From UHGV virus genome UHGV-2042139: a DNA stretch of 10,143 nucleotides, one strand, 5' to 3'. Under the pieces are notes generated by a model that was not told where the DNA came from, ran no database searches, and saw only the letters and a program-made list of their open reading frames with translations. The DNA is from a virus. The first letter of the stretch is position 1, and the number at the start of each line of letters is the position of its first letter. Shown here one piece after another: positions 1 through 10,143 of this stretch. The translations under genes and the position numbers were made by a program.

Positions 1-711
1 ATGAAAATTAGAAAAGTTGTTTTAACAAAAGCAGAGAAGTATTCTGATGAAATGGGTAATGAGATCCAGTACGAAGGTAGTTGTGACGTCAAACTAATTC
101 AGTTTAGAGGATCTAATAATAAACTTATCATTCATAAAGATGCATCATTAAAATATTTTGAGATATATTTTGACTGCAACAATGGGTATTTTGAAATTGG
201 CCCATGCCATATCGCAAACAAAGGTATACAAGCCCATATAAGAGTGGGTGAGAATTCCTCCATAAAAATAGGCTCTGATTTCACTTGCACTGGTAAAGGT
301 ATGATTTCTGCTGTAGAAAACTCAAGCATAATTATTGGCGATGACTGCATGTTTTCAAGTGGAAATGAAGTTAAAACTGATGACTCCCACCCTATTTTTA
401 GTGTAGTAACAGGTGAACGTATAAATATGCCAAAATCTATTTATATTGGAAGTCATGTCTGGGTTGGCCGCCGAGCGGCAATACTTGGTGGTGCAGAAAT
501 CGAAAGTGGTAGTGTTATTGGCTATGCAGCTGTTGTTAAAGGACACGTCCCAAATAACTCTATTGCAGCAGGAGTTCCAGCAAGAGTAATAAAAAAAGAC
601 ATTGCCTGGGAAAGACCTCATCTCTCCATACATAAACCTTATGTAAAGCCTAATAAGGACTCCATAAAAACCACAAGTGAATATTGGAACCTAACAAAAG
701 AAAAACAATAA
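1..711 (+). CDS. Hexapeptide-repeat (left-handed beta-helix) O-acetyltransferase, maltose/galactoside-acetyltransferase / NeuO-like; likely modifies a surface polysaccharide
   Basis: 236-aa ORF, ATG at 1, TAA at 709-711. Translation carries imperfect hexapeptide repeats and the typical C-terminal block (IYIGSHVWVGRRAAILGGAEIESGSVIGYAAVVKGHVPNNSIAAGVPARVIKK). The start coincides with the window edge, so the RBS and any upstream repeats cannot be seen. Confidence 0.8.
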   Translation: MKIRKVVLTKAEKYSDEMGNEIQYEGSCDVKLIQFRGSNNKLIIHKDASLKYFEIYFDCNNGYFEIGPCHIANKGIQAHIRVGENSSIKIGSDFTCTGKGMISAVENSSIIIGDDCMFSSGNEVKTDDSHPIFSVVTGERINMPKSIYIGSHVWVGRRAAILGGAEIESGSVIGYAAVVKGHVPNNSIAAGVPARVIKKDIAWERPHLSIHKPYVKPNKDSIKTTSEYWNLTKEKQ

Positions 712-745
712 AAACACACCATATATTGAACGACAAGTAAATCAC

Positions 746-790
746 ATGTCACTCCTAGAATGCGATATCTTTAAGGAGTGACATTTATCT
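746..790. terminator. Candidate bidirectional hairpin between the convergent acetyltransferase and tailspike genes
   Basis: Perfect 11-bp inverted repeat ATGTCACTCCT (746-756) / AGGAGTGACAT (774-784) with a 17-nt loop, followed by TTATCT on the + strand and a T-rich stretch on the - strand. The loop is long for a classic intrinsic terminator. Confidence 0.35.
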
Positions 791-866
791 ATAACAAATT
801 ACTAAAACACCCAAAAAACATAGACTTCAATTGGTAATATTGAGACTTAAGGTGTCAGTAAAATAG

Positions 867-3599
867 TTAATTTGCAAGCTTATTTTCCAGTTCTTCAATC
901 CTCTTTATAATATTTTTCTGACGTATACCTAATGCAGCAATCATTAGATACTGTAATTCATCATTTCTGAATGCATAGCGTTCTCCTGCTTCATGCGTAA
1001 TAGTTATAGCCTCACGAACAAGGTTACCTTCATCATCATAAACAGCTGGATCTGTATCTGTATATGCATCCCATCTGTCATAGCAGATCGCTCCGTATTT
1101 AAATGGATCAAGTCCATTCTCTCTGAATATTTCCATTGCCCGTTGCACCGTAAGTCCGGCATGAAGTCTGGCATCAGCTCCCTTATTTTTTACACTATCA
1201 AGCCATTGATAAAAACCAATTTCATCAACAAGAGCTAACCCAACCGCCTGCTCTTTATCGGAAAGAGTTCTGACTTCCGTTTTCTCTGTTGCATCAGATG
1301 TATTTATAGTTGCAGTCCCTGCGTAGACCTGAGAAAAGCGGTTAACGGACCTTCCAAGTGATACCTGGTTATCAGTTGTTGGCCTTAATGTCGTCGTCGC
1401 CCATGTCGATGTAGTATCTTTAGTCGCAGAAAATACTGTTACATTCCCCTGCTTAAGTCTGACGACACCTCCATCTGTAGAGGCAAGTATCAACTCACCA
1501 GCCGCAGATGGACAATCAGCAGCATGGATATCAATATAAGCACCACCCGCAGTATTCCCATCTTTAGAACGGAACTGCATACCTCGAAAGTTTGAGTCGA
1601 ATACTGCTTTCGTACTTACCCATGAATTATTGTCATGTCCGTAATCTGTATCAAACAGGTTAAGGTTATTTCCATAATTCAACTCGAGGGATTTGGTATA
1701 CTCTCCAATGGCTTCGTCAAATATCGCAATAGTAAATGAACCGTGCTCACGGTTAAAGGCGATATCAGTTCCAGCATAATATTGATGCGCGGTTCCGGTA
1801 TACGGATCGGATTCTGCACCATGCACTGGATGGTTGCCAAGAATATCAGACAGGTTTGCTATTCCAAACAGATGCTTATTTCTGCGAGTATAATCACCTG
1901 ATTTATATGTTGCGCCTGAATCCCATTCACCACTTGTCGCTGCAAGCGATGTTTTTAACCAATAAGACCTGTTTGTCGGAAGATTTCCCTTGTTATCACC
2001 AGTAACAATACTTACCCAATTTTTACCACGATGGCTTACAACATCCCCTGCGCTTTTCCATACATCCATAGCACCACAGACAAGTTCATCACCTCTTATT
2101 GCCAGCCCTTCAGGCTCAAAGCTAACCGGAACTCCGATTTTAGAGTCAGAACCATTTAACTGAGTCTCTGTATAAAGTGATGCGGCAAGTGATACAGGAA
2201 ATGAACGTATTAGCGTACCACCCATATCATAAATCTGTACTGTCCTTACGCATCTTGCAGGAACGCCACCCCAAATTGTGTAAATATATCTGCTATCTGA
2301 TGTAATACCCTGAAGTGTTGCACCATACTGACCTTTACCACGGACAAGTGGAACAGGACCATTAATCGGTCTAACTTTCATTGGGTTAGAAGAAGATTCC
2401 ACTTCTTTGCGATCATATACGTATAAAAAGCGGCCAGTCCCAGCGTTTGATGTCGCAATTAATATGACATATCGCCCATCATTAGATACACAAATACTTG
2501 CCCGCTGCGCAAGGTTAATCAGATTATTATCACCCGGCTCACCAAATACTCGGTAATGAGTTATATCTTCAGCAGATGTTGATGCCCCTTTCCATTTTGT
2601 CTTTGAATACCCCTTCCCTCCTAGAGAGGAACCAGTCTCAGCAATTGTTGTTGTAAACAGATATAGTTCACCGTTCTCTATTGTGGCAGAAAGATCTGAA
2701 CCGTGACCAAGAGGCAATGGCTCTGTAAATGTCACAACATAAAGAGTTGAACCATCGCTTGTATAGTGCCACTCACTGATCCTTGTGAGGGTGTCCGTTC
2801 CCCAGTTAGAACCTCCAACCTGTTGAGTGATAAAAACCTTCTCAATACCTTCATGCCTTACACAAGCTATTCCCTGCAATGCATTTTGTGCATTCGCATA
2901 TATAGTTGGCGCATTGATATCATCACCAAAATTCAGGGTCGCAAGTTTTCTTTGTCCAATGGAGAAACTTTGCATCGGCGGATTAACAGAAATGCGAACA
3001 CCATTACTGATTAGAACACCATCACCGGAGAAGCGTGAAATATCTATTTTCGATGCATCAACTATAAACTCACCAGAAGGCACATGAACCAAACCACTAT
3101 TTCCTGCGCTAGATGCGGCGTCAAGAAAAGCCTGTGTTGAATCTCTATTCCCAGAGTCATCCGCCCCCCACCCGCGAACGTCTTTATCATCCCGCCATCG
3201 TGCAATCTGTAATTCAGGGTATTTTTTAGCACCATCAGGATCTTCTAATTGCTGCCGTAACTGATCCGGGTCATACTTCAGCACATTCGGAAAATAGAAC
3301 TGCTGCGTACCATAAGCATCGTACACAGCCATAGAGTGTCCTTTCACAGTAACGAATTTGGCAATCTGTCCGTTATATACAGGATATCCAGCAGCATTGA
3401 TAACGATTGGTTGCGAAACAGGAACGTGAGAACCATCTTCATTCTCTACATAAACCTGAATCTGGTTTTCAGGATTTACAGGGTCAGTGTCAATTTTACC
3501 GATATAAATTTTTCCATTAGCTACGGCTTTAAAAGAACGAGCCATAGTGAAGAGTTGAGAAGGCATCCCAATTACAACATTTGGAGTTATATCAGGCAT
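867..3599 (-). CDS. Phage tailspike protein: P22 gp9-like N-terminal head-binding domain, divergent central receptor-binding/depolymerase body, C-terminal intramolecular-chaperone-like (peptidase S74-like) domain with terminal coiled coil
   Basis: N-terminus [59 protein letters not shown]...VLKYDPDQ matches the P22 tailspike head-binding domain ([43 protein letters not shown]...). C-terminal stretch [34 protein letters not shown]...[11 protein letters not shown]...IEELENKL resembles the autocleaving chaperone domain of endosialidase-type tailspikes, as recalled from memory. Start chosen at the ATG at 3599 (AGGA 8 nt upstream); an alternative ATG lies at 3608, and the ORF-track start at 3752 is an upstream extension with no homology. 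Confidence 0.85.
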
Positions 3600-3916
3600 A
3601 TTAGTCATCCTGTTTGAAAATTTAGATATTGAAGAAAACGGAATGACTGCAGACAAAGATGCAATTGTTTTGAAAAATAATCTTCTATTCACTTTAAAAC
3701 TATGCAACATGAACAAAACAATTATTTTACAACAAGCAAGAATCTTGATCAACAGACATATGCTTTATGCGTTTAATGCGTCACTTAAAAATAACAAGTA
3801 CTACTTTTATTCCTATCGTCCATGATTTTCATTTTCAAATATTATTAAATAACAATTCCTATTTATAATATCTGTCATTTAATCTGCTCCAGATAAAAGG
3901 AATCGCTGCAGCATTG

Positions 3917-3961
3917 CCACAGTGATGCATTATTAATCAAACAAAGAGACCACAGTGGTCT
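3917..3961. promoter_or_regulatory. Candidate operator region: 15-bp perfect palindrome plus an upstream CACAGTG core copy, in the tailspike-mnt intergenic region
   Basis: AGACCACAGTGGTCT at 3947-3961 is a perfect 7+1+7 palindrome about 70 bp upstream of the mnt ATG. A second copy of CCACAGTG lies at 3917-3924, with centres 33 bp apart. Promoter hexamers could not be assigned confidently by eye. Confidence 0.35.
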
Positions 3962-4024
3962 TATTGAGGATGCAACCAGCAGATAATAAGATGCCGATCC
4001 ACTCACAAAAGCGAGGCATCAAGA

Positions 4025-4276
4025 ATGGGAAGAGATGACCCGCAATTTAATCTGCGGCTACCTTACGAATTAAAGGAAAAACTAAAACAGCGAGCCAAAT
4101 CCAATTGCCGCTCTCTTAATTCAGAATTAGTTCAGATAGTGACTGATGCTGTATCAAAGCCATCCAAAATTTCAGGCTATCGAGACGATGCGGAACGAAT
4201 CGCTGATGAGCAGTCCGAACTTGTTAAGAAGATGGTGTTTGATACGCTGAAAGATTTGTACAAAAAACCCACCTGA
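4025..4276 (+). CDS. mnt: Mnt-type ribbon-helix-helix repressor (Arc/MetJ superfamily) with C-terminal tetramerisation coiled coil
   Basis: 83-aa ORF with GAGG 8 nt upstream of the ATG. MGRDDPQFNLRLPYELKEKLKQRAKSNCRSLNSELVQIV...YRDDAERIADEQSELVKKMVFDTLKDLYKKPT aligns along its full length with P22 Mnt as recalled (ARDDPHFNFRMPMEVREKLKFRAEANGRSMNSELLQIV...AERLADEQSELVKKMVFDTLKDLYKKTT). The N-terminal strand reads PQFNLR, as in P22 Arc. Confidence 0.85.
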   Translation: MGRDDPQFNLRLPYELKEKLKQRAKSNCRSLNSELVQIVTDAVSKPSKISGYRDDAERIADEQSELVKKMVFDTLKDLYKKPT

Positions 4277-4291
4277 TGGTGGGTTCCATTT
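4261..4291. terminator. Bidirectional intrinsic terminator shared by the convergent mnt and lipoprotein genes
   Basis: Perfect 8-bp stem AACCCACC (4266-4273) / GGTGGGTT (4278-4285) with loop TGAT. It is flanked by an A-run on the left, giving a U-tract for the minus-strand transcript, and by CCATTTATT on the right. The mnt stop codon TGA sits in the loop. Confidence 0.6.
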
Positions 4292-4292
4292 A

Positions 4293-4712
4293 TTAGTCTT
4301 GCTTTGTGGACGGTATAAGTGATGCATTTGCCTCTTTTGGCTTCAAGGTATACATTCCACCATTAAATGGATCTACAGCAAGCCAACCAATTAACCCACC
4401 AAACACAAGGTTCCCACCAATATACCAACCATTAGCATTGGCTTTGATTGGCAGGGTAACTGGTTCATACCCATCCTTCTCCATAGTGATCTGGTAGCTC
4501 TTTTTGCCAAAATAGCTACCATCTGACTTGGCGAGCGTTACACCTTGTGGGGTCTTACCTTGCGCAACAATCACACCTGACTCATCTTTTACCTTAAAGC
4601 TCGCGCCAGAAGGATTGCTGTTCACTTGCACAAGTTGCGTTTCATCACCAACAATAGTTGCGCACCCAGATAACATGATAACGCCAGCAACGACGCTAAT
4701 AATCCTCTTCAT
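4293..4712 (-). CDS. Lipoprotein with PEGA-like beta domain and C-terminal glycine-zipper segment; function unknown (candidate superinfection-exclusion or envelope protein)
   Basis: Signal peptide with lipobox (MKRIISVVAGVIMLSGC), then a PEGA-like pattern (VQVNSNPSGASFKVKDESGVIVAQGKTPQGVTL...GYEPVTLPIKA) and GGNLVFGGLIGWL. Start taken at the internal ATG at 4712 (lipoprotein signal begins there); the ORF-track start at 4745 would add an acidic 11-residue extension. Ends 7 nt before the terminator hairpin. Confidence 0.7.
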   Translation of the reverse strand: MKRIISVVAGVIMLSGCATIVGDETQLVQVNSNPSGASFKVKDESGVIVAQGKTPQGVTLAKSDGSYFGKKSYQITMEKDGYEPVTLPIKANANGWYIGGNLVFGGLIGWLAVDPFNGGMYTLKPKEANASLIPSTKQD

Positions 4713-4830
4713 ATCAATTTCCATATTTAAAAAAAACGGAAACATCCTAATGACAAATCATTCAAATGTGAAGTAGGCAAAAGATGTTTACTTTTTTCAT
4801 GGTATCCTGCTCAAAACTAAGGAGGTTGGT

Positions 4831-5154
4831 GTGTATACAACAGTTATCGTGATAGCTATCGCACTCATTGTGGTTCAGTACCAACTGGCATCTTTAAAAC
4901 AAAAGATATCTGACCTCAAGACTGAGAACGAAGCACTTAAAAACTCAATAAAAGATGAGAAGAACAAACTATCATTCACTATATCTGATATTGAGCAATC
5001 CATTGAAATTATTGAGAATAATATTAACAGACTAAAAAAAGAAGATATTCATGAAATCAATGACAATATCAAGGATTTGAAATCTTGGCTTAGGAATGTA
5101 GGGCAAATCGCCACATCAACACGAGATAAGCTCAATCCATCCATGGATGATTAA
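4831..5154 (+). CDS. Small membrane-anchored coiled-coil protein (N-terminal transmembrane helix, then heptad-rich domain); function unknown
   Basis: GTG start preceded by a strong SD, AAGGAGGT, at 4819-4826. N-terminal hydrophobic helix TTVIVIAIALIVVQY followed by a Lys/Glu-rich coiled-coil-like sequence. Markedly more AT-rich than its neighbours. Its TAA stop (5152-5154) directly abuts the stop of the convergent ORF (5155-5157). Confidence 0.6.
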   Translation: MYTTVIVIAIALIVVQYQLASLKQKISDLKTENEALKNSIKDEKNKLSFTISDIEQSIEIIENNINRLKKEDIHEINDNIKDLKSWLRNVGQIATSTRDKLNPSMDD

Positions 5155-5910
5155 TTACTCCTGTGCTATTCCGCTTAGCGACGCTACAATGCCAGCCCTC
5201 GCTAAGCGATTGAACTCTTCGTTTCCAACTGCATCACGTATTGCTTTTACGGCGGCTTTATTTGCCATAAATCTGCGTTCCGCCGCCGCTAATGCTTCTT
5301 TACTTCCGCCAGCTCTTACTGCTTTCGTGGCTTCCTGAACTGCTTTCTCTATCGCATATCGACCGCTACGCGTGGTGGCAATTTTAGATACAGCGCCTTT
5401 TAACCCGGCGCCAACTAAAGCACCTGCGGCAGCGCCTGCAATGCCCCCTCCTGCTCCACCAACAATGGCACCTGATGTTGAGTTGGCAATTGCATTTAAC
5501 ACTGTTGATGTGACGTTGGATAAACCGGCATCCAGATCGCGTAGTACATTGGCAGTTCTCCCTGTTCTTTCAATATACTGCTGAGGTTTCACTGCTGCTC
5601 TTGCAAGAGTGCCATATGCATCAGCAATTCTTCCAAGTTCTGAGGAATATCGGCTAATGGCTTTTACATTTTGTGGAGTGAGTATCTCTGCGATATGGTT
5701 AATTCCTGCTGCATCAGCTTTGCCACCACGTACACCATGCGAGATAGCATCTTGCAACATTGATGATATAGCAGGAACACGCTCTGATTCTGGCAGCGCG
5801 CGGATCATAGAATGGAACCCAGCAGGACCATTAAGACCTTTAATAGGATTCGACCCTAAGCGAGATATGCCATTCAAAGGAACTCGCCACAACGCGCTTG
5901 ATGATGCCAT
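5155..5910 (-). CDS. GC-rich Gly/Ala-rich hypothetical protein with glycine-zipper segment; possibly a 3' remnant of a larger virion (ejection-protein-like) gene or an intact membrane-active protein
   Basis: Uninterrupted 251-codon ORF containing GAIVGGAGGGIAGAAAGALVGAGLKGA. No convincing SD before the ATG at 5910. The opposite strand is broken into three same-frame ORFs with low-complexity Pro/Ala translations, consistent with the minus strand being the coding one. GC-rich sequence inflates ORF length, so confidence is moderate. Confidence 0.45.
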   Translation of the reverse strand: MASSSALWRVPLNGISRLGSNPIKGLNGPAGFHSMIRALPESERVPAISSMLQDAISHGVRGGKADAAGINHIAEILTPQNVKAISRYSSELGRIADAYGTLARAAVKPQQYIERTGRTANVLRDLDAGLSNVTSTVLNAIANSTSGAIVGGAGGGIAGAAAGALVGAGLKGAVSKIATTRSGRYAIEKAVQEATKAVRAGGSKEALAAAERRFMANKAAVKAIRDAVGNEEFNRLARAGIVASLSGIAQE

Positions 5911-5959
5911 TCACCAAGCCAAATACGTTTCAGCGATCTGGAAAAAGTTAGCTAAATAA
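5873..5959 (+). pseudogene. Possible 3'-terminal remnant of a DnaQ-like (DEDDh) 3'-5' exonuclease gene
   Basis: Plus-strand translation ends ...FKGTRHNALDDAIHQAKYVSAIWKKLAK, stopping at 5957-5959, 16 nt before the SD/ATG of the next operon gene. HNALDDA resembles the Exo III motif (H-x-A-x-x-D) of DEDDh exonucleases. No motifs I or II upstream. Partly antisense to the first codons of the 5155..5910 ORF. Confidence 0.2.
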
Positions 5960-7173: not shown

Positions 7174-7904
7174 CCACTATAACCAAAGAGCGACTGCTGA
7201 CAATCAAGCAGTGGCGCGAAACATACGGACCGGGTAGCAACGTTGTACTGCCAGCAGAAGAAGCGGAAGAACTGGCACGGATTGCTCTGGCATCGCTGGA
7301 AGCAAAACCAATAGGTGCATTCCACATTGCAGAACAGCAAGTTGACGGCACAAGTGACTACCTCAAGGATGGAGAATGGCCTATTGATAATGGAATTATT
7401 GAGGTCTACGCCGCTCCCCCCGTTCCAGTAGTACCGGAAGAAAAACCAATGCCTAACGCTCTAAGCATGCTTGAAAGAGAGATCACACAACTGATTGGTG
7501 ATGCGCAGGAAGCCACTGTTACTGGCTATGAGTTAATCGCTGAAGCTTGGCGTTTGATGGATGGACAAGACCCTAAAACCAGCGATTGGCATAGCAAGGC
7601 TTCGAAGTATTTAAATTCCAATATTGTAGAAAAAGTTGATGATGACCGTATTGATGCAATTAAGGCTGTTTTGCGTAGACTGGCTGGCAACTCTCCGGTA
7701 ACTCCGGATGGTTGGATAAGCTGTAGTGAGCGAATGCCAGATGATGGTCAGCACGTAATTATTTTATGTGATGGCGCATTCGTTCTTTATGCGCAATATC
7801 GAGACGGTGAGTTTTTTGATGTTGTCCGCAATGGTGAGGAGTTCTTCGAAACGCAGAGCCGCAATGTAACCCACTGGATGCCGCTACCAGAACCGCCGCT
7901 CTGA
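7170..7904 (+). CDS. Prophage early-region protein with DUF551-like C-terminal domain
   Basis: ATG at 7170 overlaps the upstream stop (ATGA), with SD GAGGA 8 nt upstream. The C-terminus DGWISCSERMPDDGQHVIILCDG...VTHWMPLPEPP matches the DUF551 signature as I recall it. Confidence 0.7.
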   Translation: MTTITKERLLTIKQWRETYGPGSNVVLPAEEAEELARIALASLEAKPIGAFHIAEQQVDGTSDYLKDGEWPIDNGIIEVYAAPPVPVVPEEKPMPNALSMLEREITQLIGDAQEATVTGYELIAEAWRLMDGQDPKTSDWHSKASKYLNSNIVEKVDDDRIDAIKAVLRRLAGNSPVTPDGWISCSERMPDDGQHVIILCDGAFVLYAQYRDGEFFDVVRNGEEFFETQSRNVTHWMPLPEPPL

Positions 7905-7933
7905 TAGCGAATCTTATACATATCTTTTACATC

Positions 7934-7947
7934 AACAATATATTGTT
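7934..7947. promoter_or_regulatory. 14-bp perfect AT-rich palindrome, candidate operator upstream of the zinc-ribbon gene
   Basis: AACAATATATTGTT at 7934-7947, in the 96-bp gap between the DUF551 gene and the zinc-ribbon gene, 53 bp upstream of the ATG at 8001. Confidence 0.3.
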
Positions 7948-8000
7948 AATTTCCAATCAATGTTACGTTGTCATCTCACTCATGCTTTGGAGGTAGTGAT

Positions 8001-8180
8001 ATGTCTTGTCCAAAATGCGGTTCTGGAAATATTGCAAAAGAAAAAACAAGGCGTGGATGGTCTGGAGATTATGTGTGCAGTGATTGCGGATACAACAACT
8101 CTAAAGACGCATTTGGAATGCGCGGTAAAAACGAGTTTAGTAAAAATAATAAAGAACGCGGAAGCAACGAAAAAAGCTAA
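8001..8180 (+). CDS. Small zinc-ribbon protein (CxxC-x19-CxxC), 59 aa
   Basis: ATG at 8001 with SD GGAGG 7 nt upstream. MSCPKCGSGNIAKEKTRRGWSGDYVCSDCGYNN, then a basic tail. The ORF-track start at 7968 is a TTG. Confidence 0.55.
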   Translation: MSCPKCGSGNIAKEKTRRGWSGDYVCSDCGYNNSKDAFGMRGKNEFSKNNKERGSNEKS

Positions 8181-8243
8181 ATTATTTATTCATATATGAA
8201 AACAATGTAACCAATATTCGAATTGAAGAACTGAAAGAACACT

Positions 8244-8268
8244 AAGCCGCCTGATGGCGGTTTTTTAT
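8244..8268 (+). terminator. Rho-independent terminator ending the small-gene operon
   Basis: GC-rich stem AAGCCGCC (8244-8251) / GGCGGTTT (8256-8263) with one G-U pair, loop TGAT, then a run of T residues. Confidence 0.6.
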
Positions 8269-8280
8269 TGGAGACAAGAA

Positions 8281-8625
8281 ATGTCAGATTTGGCTATGAA
8301 GATTTTGAAATGGCAAACGACTGGCGATGTCGGCATCAGTAGCGCAACTCTTGCCTCAATCGCATGTGGACTGAAAAAGAATATCTATGGTCATCACTTC
8401 GGCGCTCCACATGACGCAGCCGATTTCCGACGATGCGTTGCACTTGTTGAGCAGATTCCAGAAATCAGAGATTCATTCGACAAGGTTGCAAAGCGCGTTC
8501 CGGCATTCAAAGGCATCCTCAACGAATGGGATTCTCTCGTTGCTCTGTTGAAGTCTGAAATGAAGATACACGGAAACAAAGCACCAGAGACTTACAGAAG
8601 AATCAGAGAACTACGCAAGGACTAA
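8281..8625 (+). CDS. Hypothetical protein (114 aa)
   Basis: ATG at 8281 with SD GGAGA 6 nt upstream, just downstream of the terminator. The ORF-track start at 8254 lies inside the hairpin and is rejected. No family recognised. Confidence 0.55.
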   Translation: MSDLAMKILKWQTTGDVGISSATLASIACGLKKNIYGHHFGAPHDAADFRRCVALVEQIPEIRDSFDKVAKRVPAFKGILNEWDSLVALLKSEMKIHGNKAPETYRRIRELRKD

Positions 8626-8746
8626 CTATGGAATCATACAGCCTCACACTCGATGAGGCCTGACAGTTTCTCAAGATCGCCAGATCTACCGCAACCGACA
8701 ATAACCGCCACTGAACGGTTTATTTCTTTATGGAGAAACCATACAA

Positions 8747-8977
8747 ATGACAATCAATATTCAGCCGATTCTAATAAACCGCGAGCGTGTTCAGGAGATG
8801 CTTGGTGGTATCTCCAGAACTACTTTTTACCGGAAGCGTAAACAGTGGGAGCAATCAGGGACACCATTCCCTCGGGAAGTGGAAGAAATCCACCCACCGA
8901 AAGGCGGCGCCCTCTTTCGCTACAAGGAAGTTATTCAGTTTTGCAAAGATAAAGGATTGATTTCCGAACACTCTTGA
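8747..8977 (+). CDS. AlpA/excisionase-family helix-turn-helix regulator (prophage regulatory protein)
   Basis: 76-aa translation ...INRERVQEMLGGISRTTFYRKRKQ...GTPFPREV...FRYKEVIQFCKDKGL fits the AlpA/Xis-type pattern (compare E. coli AlpA ...LRLPAVIQKTGMARATIYDWL...FPKK...W...EIDEWL). Its 3' end overlaps the integrase 3' end by 43 nt in convergent orientation. Confidence 0.7.
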   Translation: MTINIQPILINRERVQEMLGGISRTTFYRKRKQWEQSGTPFPREVEEIHPPKGGALFRYKEVIQFCKDKGLISEHS

Positions 8978-10143
8978 ATTTTCTTAGCCCATAATTCTGC
9001 TGCGTCCTGCTGCTCGGGGATGTAGTCATACTGGTCATAAACAGCCAGCATCCCCGTGAGCTTATGCCCGAGAATTTTCTCCGAAACATGAGGTGCTACT
9101 CCAAGTTCAGCCATTTTTGTTTTGCACGTTCTGCGCAGATCGTGCAATGACCAGTGCTCGCCCCCCATAACATCTTCTACCTGTTCTGCAATAGAAATTA
9201 GGGTGCTGGCAGACATTGGGCGATTTTCCTGTAACTTAGCCGGAGGAAATACGATTGACAGATCAGGGTATAGATCAAATACCTGCTGCAAATAATCTGC
9301 TGCGAGTTTTGAAATACCGCGAACAAATCGCTTACGCGTTTTTGAGTTCTCTTTCGGTATAGTCCATTCTCTAGACTTCAGATCAAAATCAGTCTTCTTA
9401 GCCAACCGCAATTCAACACCACGACAACCAGTTAACGCAACAATTCGAATAAACATTTTGTTTTGCCACGACATTTTCGTTTTGTCGATGGCATTCCAGA
9501 ATGCGCCTATCTCAACATCGTTAAGAAAACGTTCGCCATTATTAGGTCTACTGCCGATATCATTAATCTCAAGAAGCATCAGTGCATTTGATGTTATGCG
9601 TTTTCTGCGTAACGCATAGCGGATCACTTGCTTCATCTTCACCAGTACATTTCCCGCCTGTACGGGTGACCCACCTTTTGTTATGCGAATGAATATTTGC
9701 TCCCACTCTACAGGACTCATTTCATCTGCAATCAGCTTACCGTAATTGTCGGTGATGTGAAGTTTCAGCATCCGCTTCCAGTATTCGTACTTCACCATCT
9801 CTTTTACTGAAGGAGTATCAAACCACTCGTCAACTAGGGTACTGATGCTTGGGGAACTTGATGCAATATCTTTGGCTTTCTTCCTTTGCATGGCTGGGTC
9901 TTTACCCTTCTCCAACCACCCTTTACACTCTTCCAATGCATCGCGAGCTTCCTTAAGCGACATCTTCCCGTACGTTCCGAGCTTTAACCTGGCGGGTTTT
10001 CCATTGAAACGATAGCGGTATTGAAAGGTGATAAGTCCCTTCGGGCTGATCCTGACAGAAAGTCCGCCTCCGTCAGCTATCTCCTCAGGTCCCTCATATG
10101 CTTTTCCGGATATACGTCGCAGCTTTGTATCGTTGAGTGCCAT
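8935..10143 (-). CDS. int: Tyrosine site-specific integrase, P4-like family, with N-terminal arm-binding (DUF4102-type) domain
   Basis: 402-aa ORF. N-terminus LNDTKLRRISGKAYEGPEEIADGGGLSVRISPKGLITFQYRYRFNGKPARLKLGTY...SLKEARDA is typical of P4-type integrases. C-terminal catalytic region contains HDLRRT...LGH...AVYDQY. The start codon is the final triplet of the window, so the upstream att site and any tRNA are outside it. Confidence 0.9.
   Translation of the reverse strand: MALNDTKLRRISGKAYEGPEEIADGGGLSVRISPKGLITFQYRYRFNGKPARLKLGTYGKMSLKEARDALEECKGWLEKGKDPAMQRKKAKDIASSSPSISTLVDEWFDTPSVKEMVKYEYWKRMLKLHITDNYGKLIADEMSPVEWEQIFIRITKGGSPVQAGNVLVKMKQVIRYALRRKRITSNALMLLEINDIGSRPNNGERFLNDVEIGAFWNAIDKTKMSWQNKMFIRIVALTGCRGVELRLAKKTDFDLKSREWTIPKENSKTRKRFVRGISKLAADYLQQVFDLYPDLSIVFPPAKLQENRPMSASTLISIAEQVEDVMGGEHWSLHDLRRTCKTKMAELGVAPHVSEKILGHKLTGMLAVYDQYDYIPEQQDAAELWAKKIQECSEINPLSLQN

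Follow-up and report, generated by a model that had tools for sequence, protein, structure and literature searches.

HkcB in the sieA expression slot and a mobile lipoprotein: two independent cargo genes of a decayed P22-like prophage

In phage P22, the region between gene 16 and mnt holds the exclusion gene sieA. In the 10,143-nucleotide viral sequence analysed here (UHGV virus genome UHGV-2042139; hereafter the window), the same place is taken by two small genes on opposite strands, a lipoprotein gene (4293..4712, -; 139 residues) and hkcB (4831..5154, +; 107 residues). An earlier note on this DNA regarded the two as a candidate exclusion or defence pair, which raises the question of whether either gene keeps other phages out, and whether they do so together. 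The window as a whole is an Escherichia coli prophage of the P22-like (Lederbergvirus) type, now decayed, and both genes belong to the variable gene 16-gene 9 region, lying between a remnant of gene 16 and mnt. The best overall explanation, to which we give about an even chance, is that these are two independent moron genes, HkcB being a replacement for SieA and the other product an envelope-modifying lipoprotein.

Neither gene is new. Positions 4179-5300 of the window are 98.7% identical in nucleotide sequence to genes 16, 15, 14 and 13 of Salmonella phage epsilon34; the lipoprotein is 100% identical to epsilon34 gp15, and HkcB is 99% identical to gp14 and 56% identical to HkcB of phage HK620. 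Gene 14 of epsilon34 is a homologue of hkcB in HK620 and CUS-3. The epsilon34 genome paper named the gene 16-gene 9 interval the 'ant moron', found ten types of it in sixteen genomes and stated that genes 14 and 15 were of unknown function, gene 15 matching many bacterial genes (PMC2629481). The corresponding full-length PHROG matches, phrog_5962 for HkcB (E=1.4e-58) and phrog_6823 for the lipoprotein (E=2.6e-86), are also families annotated as 'unknown function'. Nonsynonymous divergence (dN) is well below synonymous divergence (dS) in both genes (dN 0.28-0.41 against dS of at least 0.9 for hkcB; dN 0.15-0.49 with saturated dS for the lipoprotein gene), so that both are real genes under purifying selection, placed and oriented as the earlier note had described. 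The object is ordinary prophage moron cargo, and the useful new lead is a start cassette shared with sieA, on account of which hkcB and the other genes of the slot are concrete and inexpensive candidates for new exclusion proteins.

In P22, sieA is convergent to gene 16, lies 22 nucleotides (nt) downstream of it and has an annotated promoter, PsieA. Upstream of hkcB, the segment 4784..4834 (+) is identical to the corresponding P22 sequence at 49 of 51 nt, and this identity takes in an extended -10-like element, TGGTATCCT (4800-4808, +), the Shine-Dalgarno (SD) sequence and the GTG start codon. The SD, AAGGAGG at 4819-4825, stands 5 nt 5' of the GTG (4831-4833), in line with the near-consensus SD previously noted for this gene. 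In HK620 the sequence upstream of hkcB is that of P22 over at least 95 nt, including the annotated PsieA, with two mismatches just before the SD. The core of the cassette, the 19 nt AACTAAGGAGGTTGGTGTG comprising SD and GTG (4815-4833, +), is invariant before several unrelated genes of this slot, and in the P22-like phage and prophage loci that were fetched the 19-nt cassette AACTAAGGRGGTTGGYGTG precedes at least seven unrelated families of open reading frames (ORFs). These are SieA itself (164 residues, about four transmembrane (TM) segments), HkcB (one TM segment and a coiled coil), a 109-residue protein with a TM segment and a coiled coil that profile comparison links weakly to HkcB (hhalign probability 66%), a 129-residue protein with a signal peptide, proteins of 62 and 75 residues with two TM segments each, and a 140-residue ORF that looks soluble and cytoplasmic; six of the seven are therefore envelope proteins. 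Further copies of the cassette are found in loci L032 (3829-3847, -), L023 (3522-3540) and L046, L033 and L047 (around 4883, -). Since the same cassette stands before unrelated ORFs, the coding sequence has been swapped exactly at the start codon, and the 19 nt look like a cassette-exchange site.

The other end of hkcB is equally constant. Its stop codon abuts that of gene 16 (TAA next to TTA) in the window, epsilon34, HK620, CUS-3, SEN22, Leclercia and Salmonella, and in 44 of 44 assessable IMG/VR contigs. The type of gene in the slot also tracks the type of gp16 in the IMG/VR loci (L033-L106), with few exceptions: HkcB accompanies gp16 with an epsilon34/CUS-3/HK620-type C-terminus, SieA and the 129-, 109- and 62-residue proteins accompany P22-type gp16, and a lipoprotein resembling gp13 of phage Gally accompanies Gally-type gp16. 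This correlation could reflect tight linkage or functional matching. SieA is the only member of the cassette group that has been tested. It is a protein of the inner membrane that, with 85 bp of upstream DNA, is sufficient for exclusion; it blocks injection through gp16 and gp20, escape mutations mapping to the C-terminal regions of these two proteins; it carries the conserved motif FxRYPxEAxxFNK, its most conserved motif being predicted to lie at the cytoplasmic face; and it is found in about a third of sequenced P22-like phages (PMC10883804). Like sieA, hkcB is a gene of the interval between 16 and 9 that converges on gene 16 and follows a cassette with a putative promoter of its own, and the sieA-type cassette together with the convergent position at gene 16 strengthens, at the level of gene organisation, the idea that hkcB may be an exclusion gene.

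The HkcB protein has one hydrophobic segment, residues 3-22, predicted to form an N-terminal TM helix, and AlphaFold2 (AF2) predicts a single helix over residues 2-101. Heptad periodicity is significant at residues 19-50 (13 of 2000 shuffles) and is weaker and phase-shifted beyond, and the C-terminus carries a conserved motif, W(L/V)xNVGxIAxSTRDK(L/I)NPS. The single-pass coiled-coil architecture that had been read from the letters thus agrees with our predictions. In every HkcB allele the TM segment lacks a preceding positive charge, with Glu there in some, and is directly followed by Lys or Arg; in the window K23 and K25 follow the segment, while the HK620 allele has E3 before it and R/KK after. 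By the positive-inside rule this pattern favours an N-out/C-in orientation with a cytoplasmic coiled coil. [quoted passage not shown] The family is tiny: clustering at 90% identity gives 21 clusters, a profile search of 1.84 billion representative proteins gave about 5-7 HkcB-like clusters at 50% identity, and a scan of species-representative genome contigs for hkcB returned no match. Pfam and NCBIfam gave dozens of coiled-coil families for HkcB, DivIC/FtsL among them, all below cut-off, and PADLOC gave coiled-coil noise with nothing specific.

The low GC content of hkcB had been taken as a sign of recent acquisition. The gene is indeed AT-rich, at 0.336 GC against 0.445-0.488 in its flanks, but its GC content at third codon positions (GC3) is 0.352, the corresponding values being 0.319 (gene 16), 0.302 (tailspike gene), 0.393 (mnt) and 0.414 (lipoprotein gene). 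The deficit is found at codon position 2 (0.241), owing to the Lys/Asn/Ile/Glu/Asp-rich composition of the coiled coil. AT-richness as evidence of recent acquisition is ruled out by GC3 and is a composition artefact. Of the marks by which morons are recognised under the Juhala/Hendrix definition, a base composition unlike that of the neighbours is therefore absent, hkcB and the lipoprotein gene having GC3 values in the range of the adjacent genes (0.30-0.39). Both genes do show presence or absence between otherwise syntenic phage genomes, and both have candidate expression signals of their own, namely consensus promoter and terminator matches for the lipoprotein gene, whose promoter block is conserved across contexts, and the sieA cassette before hkcB.

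How might HkcB act? The gene lies antisense to late transcription, for which reason HkcB would be expected mainly in the lysogen. There it would be a bitopic inner-membrane protein with a long coiled coil, probably oligomeric, and would most likely be a non-homologous functional replacement of SieA, keeping superinfecting P22-like phages from delivering their DNA at the inner membrane, the site of the conduit made by gp16 and gp20. We propose tentatively, at somewhat less than an even chance, that HkcB is expressed in the lysogen, takes the functional place of SieA and blocks delivery of P22-like DNA.

The lipoprotein gene was first delimited mechanically as an ORF at 4293-4745 (-), but position 4745 is merely the first in-frame ATG and makes the protein 11 codons too long; epsilon34, RefSeq and the PHROG profile all begin the protein at the ATG at 4712 (MKRIIS...). 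The protein has a signal peptide with the lipobox MLSG/C17 and an invariant Ala at +2, which predicts sorting to the outer membrane, so that envelope targeting, as the earlier note had supposed, is predicted for both genes. Residues 25-98 form a PEGA-like beta-sandwich (prealbumin-like fold). The match to the Pfam PEGA family (PF08308) reaches 17.3 bits (E=0.0045), below the gathering cut-off of 20.8; the resemblance noted before thus holds for the fold, and 'PEGA-like' is a description of that fold, not of family membership. The glycine zipper noted before corresponds to GxxxG motifs at residues 95-99 and 105-109, and falls in an invariant Gly-rich hydrophobic motif at residues 94-125 (NGWYIGGN..GGLIGW..VDPFNGGMYTL.P) that is modelled with low confidence. 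Pfam and NCBIfam gave, besides the sub-threshold PEGA match, a fragment of a Leptospira family and nothing else; PADLOC gave no match for the lipoprotein, a BFVD fold search found one viral relative and otherwise generic beta-sandwiches, and sequence-profile searches of the PDB found no specific relative. The profile searches proposed earlier thus gave no significant spanin or defence-family match for either protein and left PEGA below threshold.

A putative sigma-70-like promoter for this gene, the consensus match TTCACA-17-TAGGAT, lies at 4744..4772 (-). A GC-rich hairpin (4266..4285) separates the stop codons of mnt and the lipoprotein gene; on the minus strand TTTTTT follows it, so that it would act as the terminator of the lipoprotein gene, and epsilon34 has an annotated Rho-independent terminator at the corresponding place. 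The promoter-like sequence and the TAGGATGTTTCCG.TTTTTT block accompany the gene into a siphovirus prophage context. Homologues with 69-71% identity stand between the genes for the tail chaperones and the tape measure, both in HK97-headed siphovirus prophages of E. coli and in siphovirus prophages of Proteus; HK97 carries its gene-15 exclusion moron in this interval (PMC3594210). In Pseudescherichia a homologue lies between gpI and gpJ, and in Actinobacillus it is prophage-borne in a regulatory region. Three phage architectures have the gene specifically within their clusters of tail or ejection genes. The whole family comprises 715 clusters, and in Fukatsuia, Xenorhabdus and another gammaproteobacterium its members are stand-alone chromosomal genes, adjoining rpoE-rseA-rseC and other housekeeping genes. 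On these genomic contexts, the lipoprotein gene is an autonomous, mobile moron carrying a predicted promoter and a predicted terminator.

The lipoprotein would have been captured from this chromosomal family of Enterobacterales outer-membrane lipoproteins. Anchored in the inner leaflet of the outer membrane, it would most likely alter the envelope of the lysogen, for example by interfering with phage entry at outer-membrane or periplasmic steps or by conferring a Bor-like benefit on the host. Its most likely role may be interference with phage entry, even though we hold this particular assignment to be doubtful, and a Bor-like or general envelope role is the main rival.

Other morons share some of these contexts. 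In the E. coli siphovirus prophages with a lipoprotein homologue before the tape-measure gene (loci L004-L008, about 12261-13424), a porin gene (Porin_1/Porin_4) stands between gpM and gpL, and a block of a ClpP-like protease, Arc and an antirepressor lies within the tail cluster, so that their tail operon holds several morons. Two other, unrelated lipoproteins occupy the gene 16-mnt region in further P22-like phages, gp13 of phage Gally (locus L013, 2881-3396, -) and a Leclercia protein (locus L016, 5514-5918, -), with lipoboxes LLAGC and TTGGC, respectively, and envelope lipoproteins are thus a recurrent cargo type of this region.

Do the two genes act together? Among 5,426 complete E. coli genomes, the lipoprotein allele is present in 123 and hkcB in 155 (a close allele in 72), and the two are adjacent in 10, that is, in about 6-14% of carriers. 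Where hkcB occurs on viral contigs the lipoprotein gene is its upstream neighbour in 11 of 48; elsewhere the neighbour is HkcC, a HicAB-like gene or another gene. Conversely, the slot gene found in 74 P22-like viral contigs with the lipoprotein is HkcB in 11, an unrelated Gally gp13-like lipoprotein in 17, the 129-residue protein in about 20, the 109-residue protein in about 11 and two-TM peptides in 6, and in 9 there is none. The proposed test of co-occurrence across genomes thus went against the pair: the genes assort independently, so the lipoprotein and hkcB are not a functional pair, and an obligate two-gene system is ruled out. The divergent layout itself is explained by a scar. The first six codons of hkcC (MKKVNI), which HK620 has in divergent orientation to hkcB, survive at 4783..4800 (-), which indicates that a lipoprotein module replaced hkcC and that the arrangement is a mosaic accident. 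The interval would accordingly consist of two independent lysogenic-conversion genes of a Lederbergvirus remnant.

Taken as a whole, an exclusion role is plausible but unproven, with good reason to propose it for HkcB and less reason for the lipoprotein, and several observations weigh against it. BLASTP of HkcB against P22 SieA gave an 18-residue chance match (E=0.047) and no homology, and a hydropathy scan found one segment in HkcB against four in SieA, so that HkcB is not polytopic as the SieA family is. The shared promoter slot shows common regulation, not common function, and the window does not preserve the -35 part of the annotated PsieA, so that expression there is putative. Other genes of the gene 16-gene 9 region are toxin-antitoxin-like or soluble, and positions next to gp16 or tape-measure genes may be mere permissive insertion sites. 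The prophage itself is a remnant. The non-phage chromosomal relatives of the lipoprotein make a general envelope role unrelated to phage possible, and our search of the literature on hkcB, the 'ant moron', PEGA in prophages and lipoprotein morons found no functional study.

The rival that survives best denies any anti-phage role, and we consider it rather unlikely. The lipoprotein would then be a Bor/Lom-like factor for fitness, virulence or envelope maintenance, while HkcB would modulate a host process such as division or membrane stress, or hkcB transcription would tune the read-through from gene 16 to the tailspike gene. Virulence or fitness factors are frequent among morons (PMC3594210), the 'ant moron' of epsilon34 affects tailspike expression through late read-through (PMC2629481), both genes are intact in a decayed prophage beside thrS, and the lipoprotein family has the stand-alone chromosomal members next to rpoE-rseA-rseC and other housekeeping genes. 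Nevertheless, the DivIC/FtsL-like matches that would suggest a division role for HkcB score far under the cut-offs, and strong purifying selection at the protein level speaks against a purely transcriptional role. Moreover, hkcB shares its slot with a proven exclusion gene, nearly all of the alternatives in that slot are small envelope proteins, and the lipoprotein gene keeps returning to tail and ejection clusters.

A second rival, which we regard as improbable, is that HkcB is an abortive-infection or toxin-like protein that depolarises the membrane upon infection with no block to injection. It is a small single-pass membrane protein from a prophage, and SEN22 and CUS-3 have toxin-antitoxin-like genes in the same region; the PADLOC abortive-infection and toxin models, however, found nothing beyond coiled-coil noise, the hkcB contigs show no consistent partner antitoxin nearby, and pore-forming toxins do not resemble HkcB, with its long soluble coiled coil and the motif conserved at its C-terminus.

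Least probable by far is a spanin-like pair, in which an inner-membrane coiled coil (Rz-like) and an outer-membrane lipoprotein (Rz1-like) would serve lysis or envelope fusion: the architecture is superficially alike, the Rz-like profiles phrog_739, 214 and 89 match HkcB (E 1.4e-3 to 2.1e-3) and a Leclercia hkcB (53% identical) adjoins a different lipoprotein, but the pair is essentially excluded by location, strand, gene independence, lipoprotein type and predicted topology, given that those scores are within the noise of generic coiled-coil matches, both genes lie outside the lysis cassette in every context examined, no lipoprotein ORF is embedded in hkcB, epsilon34-type phages carry their own Rz/Rz1, hkcB is antisense to the late operon, adjacency is rare and the neighbours of hkcB elsewhere are HkcC, HicAB-like and other soluble proteins, the lipoprotein is a 139-residue beta-sandwich and not a short Pro-rich Rz1, and HkcB has no N-terminal positive charges, which speaks against the N-in topology of Rz.

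Returning to two independent morons with HkcB in the place of SieA, a broader and more speculative version, which we think unlikely, would make the 19-51-nt sieA start cassette a swap-in exclusion site. At least six unrelated small envelope proteins would be exchanged there, each with an injection-blocking specificity matched to the C-terminal type of the linked gp16; HkcB would be a new non-homologous family acting from the cytoplasmic face, and the lipoprotein a factor that interferes, across morphotypes (podovirus and siphovirus), with formation of the trans-envelope conduit. If cassette genes do exclude phages, a single locus would hold a set of non-homologous inhibitors of the gp7/gp20/gp16 conduit, which would offer tools for studying how podoviruses cross the envelope and a basis for predicting the resistance that prophages confer on E. 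coli and Salmonella. Because it recurs next to conduit genes of both podoviruses and siphoviruses, the lipoprotein is a cheap candidate for screening. If neither gene has a phenotype, the locus is ordinary moron cargo.

The rest of the window fits a prophage in decay. A hexapeptide-type acyltransferase gene (1-711, +) is followed on the opposite strand by the tailspike gene with its P22 head-binding domain (867-3599, -); the C-terminus of the tailspike has an endosialidase-chaperone (Peptidase_S74) domain and a weak end-tail-spike match, and together the two genes look like a probable seroconversion module that modifies O-antigen or capsule. The gene mnt, encoding an Arc/Mnt ribbon-helix-helix repressor (4025-4276, +), forms the other border of the cargo region and is orphaned, with no arc, ant or sar between it and the tailspike gene but only a spacer of 27-34% GC (interval 3600-4276, mnt included); in this remnant the Mnt repressor is therefore left without an antirepressor gene to control. 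On the other side, the 3' remnant of the gene for the ejection protein gp16 (5155-5842, -; 229 codons) is cut at 5842 by a deletion, whose junction (5842-5959) fuses gene 16 to the final 39 or so codons of an Rv2179c-like 3'-5' exonuclease gene, with abc2 next. The early-left genes abc2, Ea22-like and DUF551 lie to the right of the gene 16 remnant, and a P4-type integrase gene occupies 8935-10143 (-). A thrS-adjacent remnant in E. coli EC24 is identical to the window over 1-5842 and 7235-10143 and differs in its internal deletion. Scanning the window for Rfam families and tRNAs gave no hits.

Compared with epsilon34 and HK620, the same genes stand here in a deleted prophage remnant that has lost arc, ant and most of gene 16. 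The Rz/Rz1 spanins resemble the window genes in combining a membrane-anchored coiled coil with a lipoprotein, and differ in location, strand, obligate pairing, lipoprotein type and the topology predicted for HkcB. Cor and T5 Llp are outer-membrane lipoproteins that inactivate FhuA. Like our lipoprotein they are encoded by phages or prophages in or near tail clusters, but the match to Cor is confined to the signal peptide (phrog_1119, residues 12-31; NF047972, E=0.07, below cut-off), the mature domain of the lipoprotein being different and larger; furthermore, carriers of the lipoprotein use diverse receptors, so that a mask for a single receptor is unlikely. HK97 gp15 offers a parallel in position, as lipoprotein homologues sit in exactly its slot and both have chromosomal relatives (YebO in the case of gp15), although gp15 is a small inner-membrane exclusion protein (PMC3594210) and the lipoprotein is of the outer-membrane type with a beta-sandwich. 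SieA is the nearest counterpart of HkcB: hkcB abuts gene 16 where P22 sieA leaves a gap of 22 nt, but both genes occupy a slot convergent to gene 16, share 49 of 51 nt of upstream sequence with its SD and GTG, encode small membrane proteins and are expected to be expressed in the lysogen.

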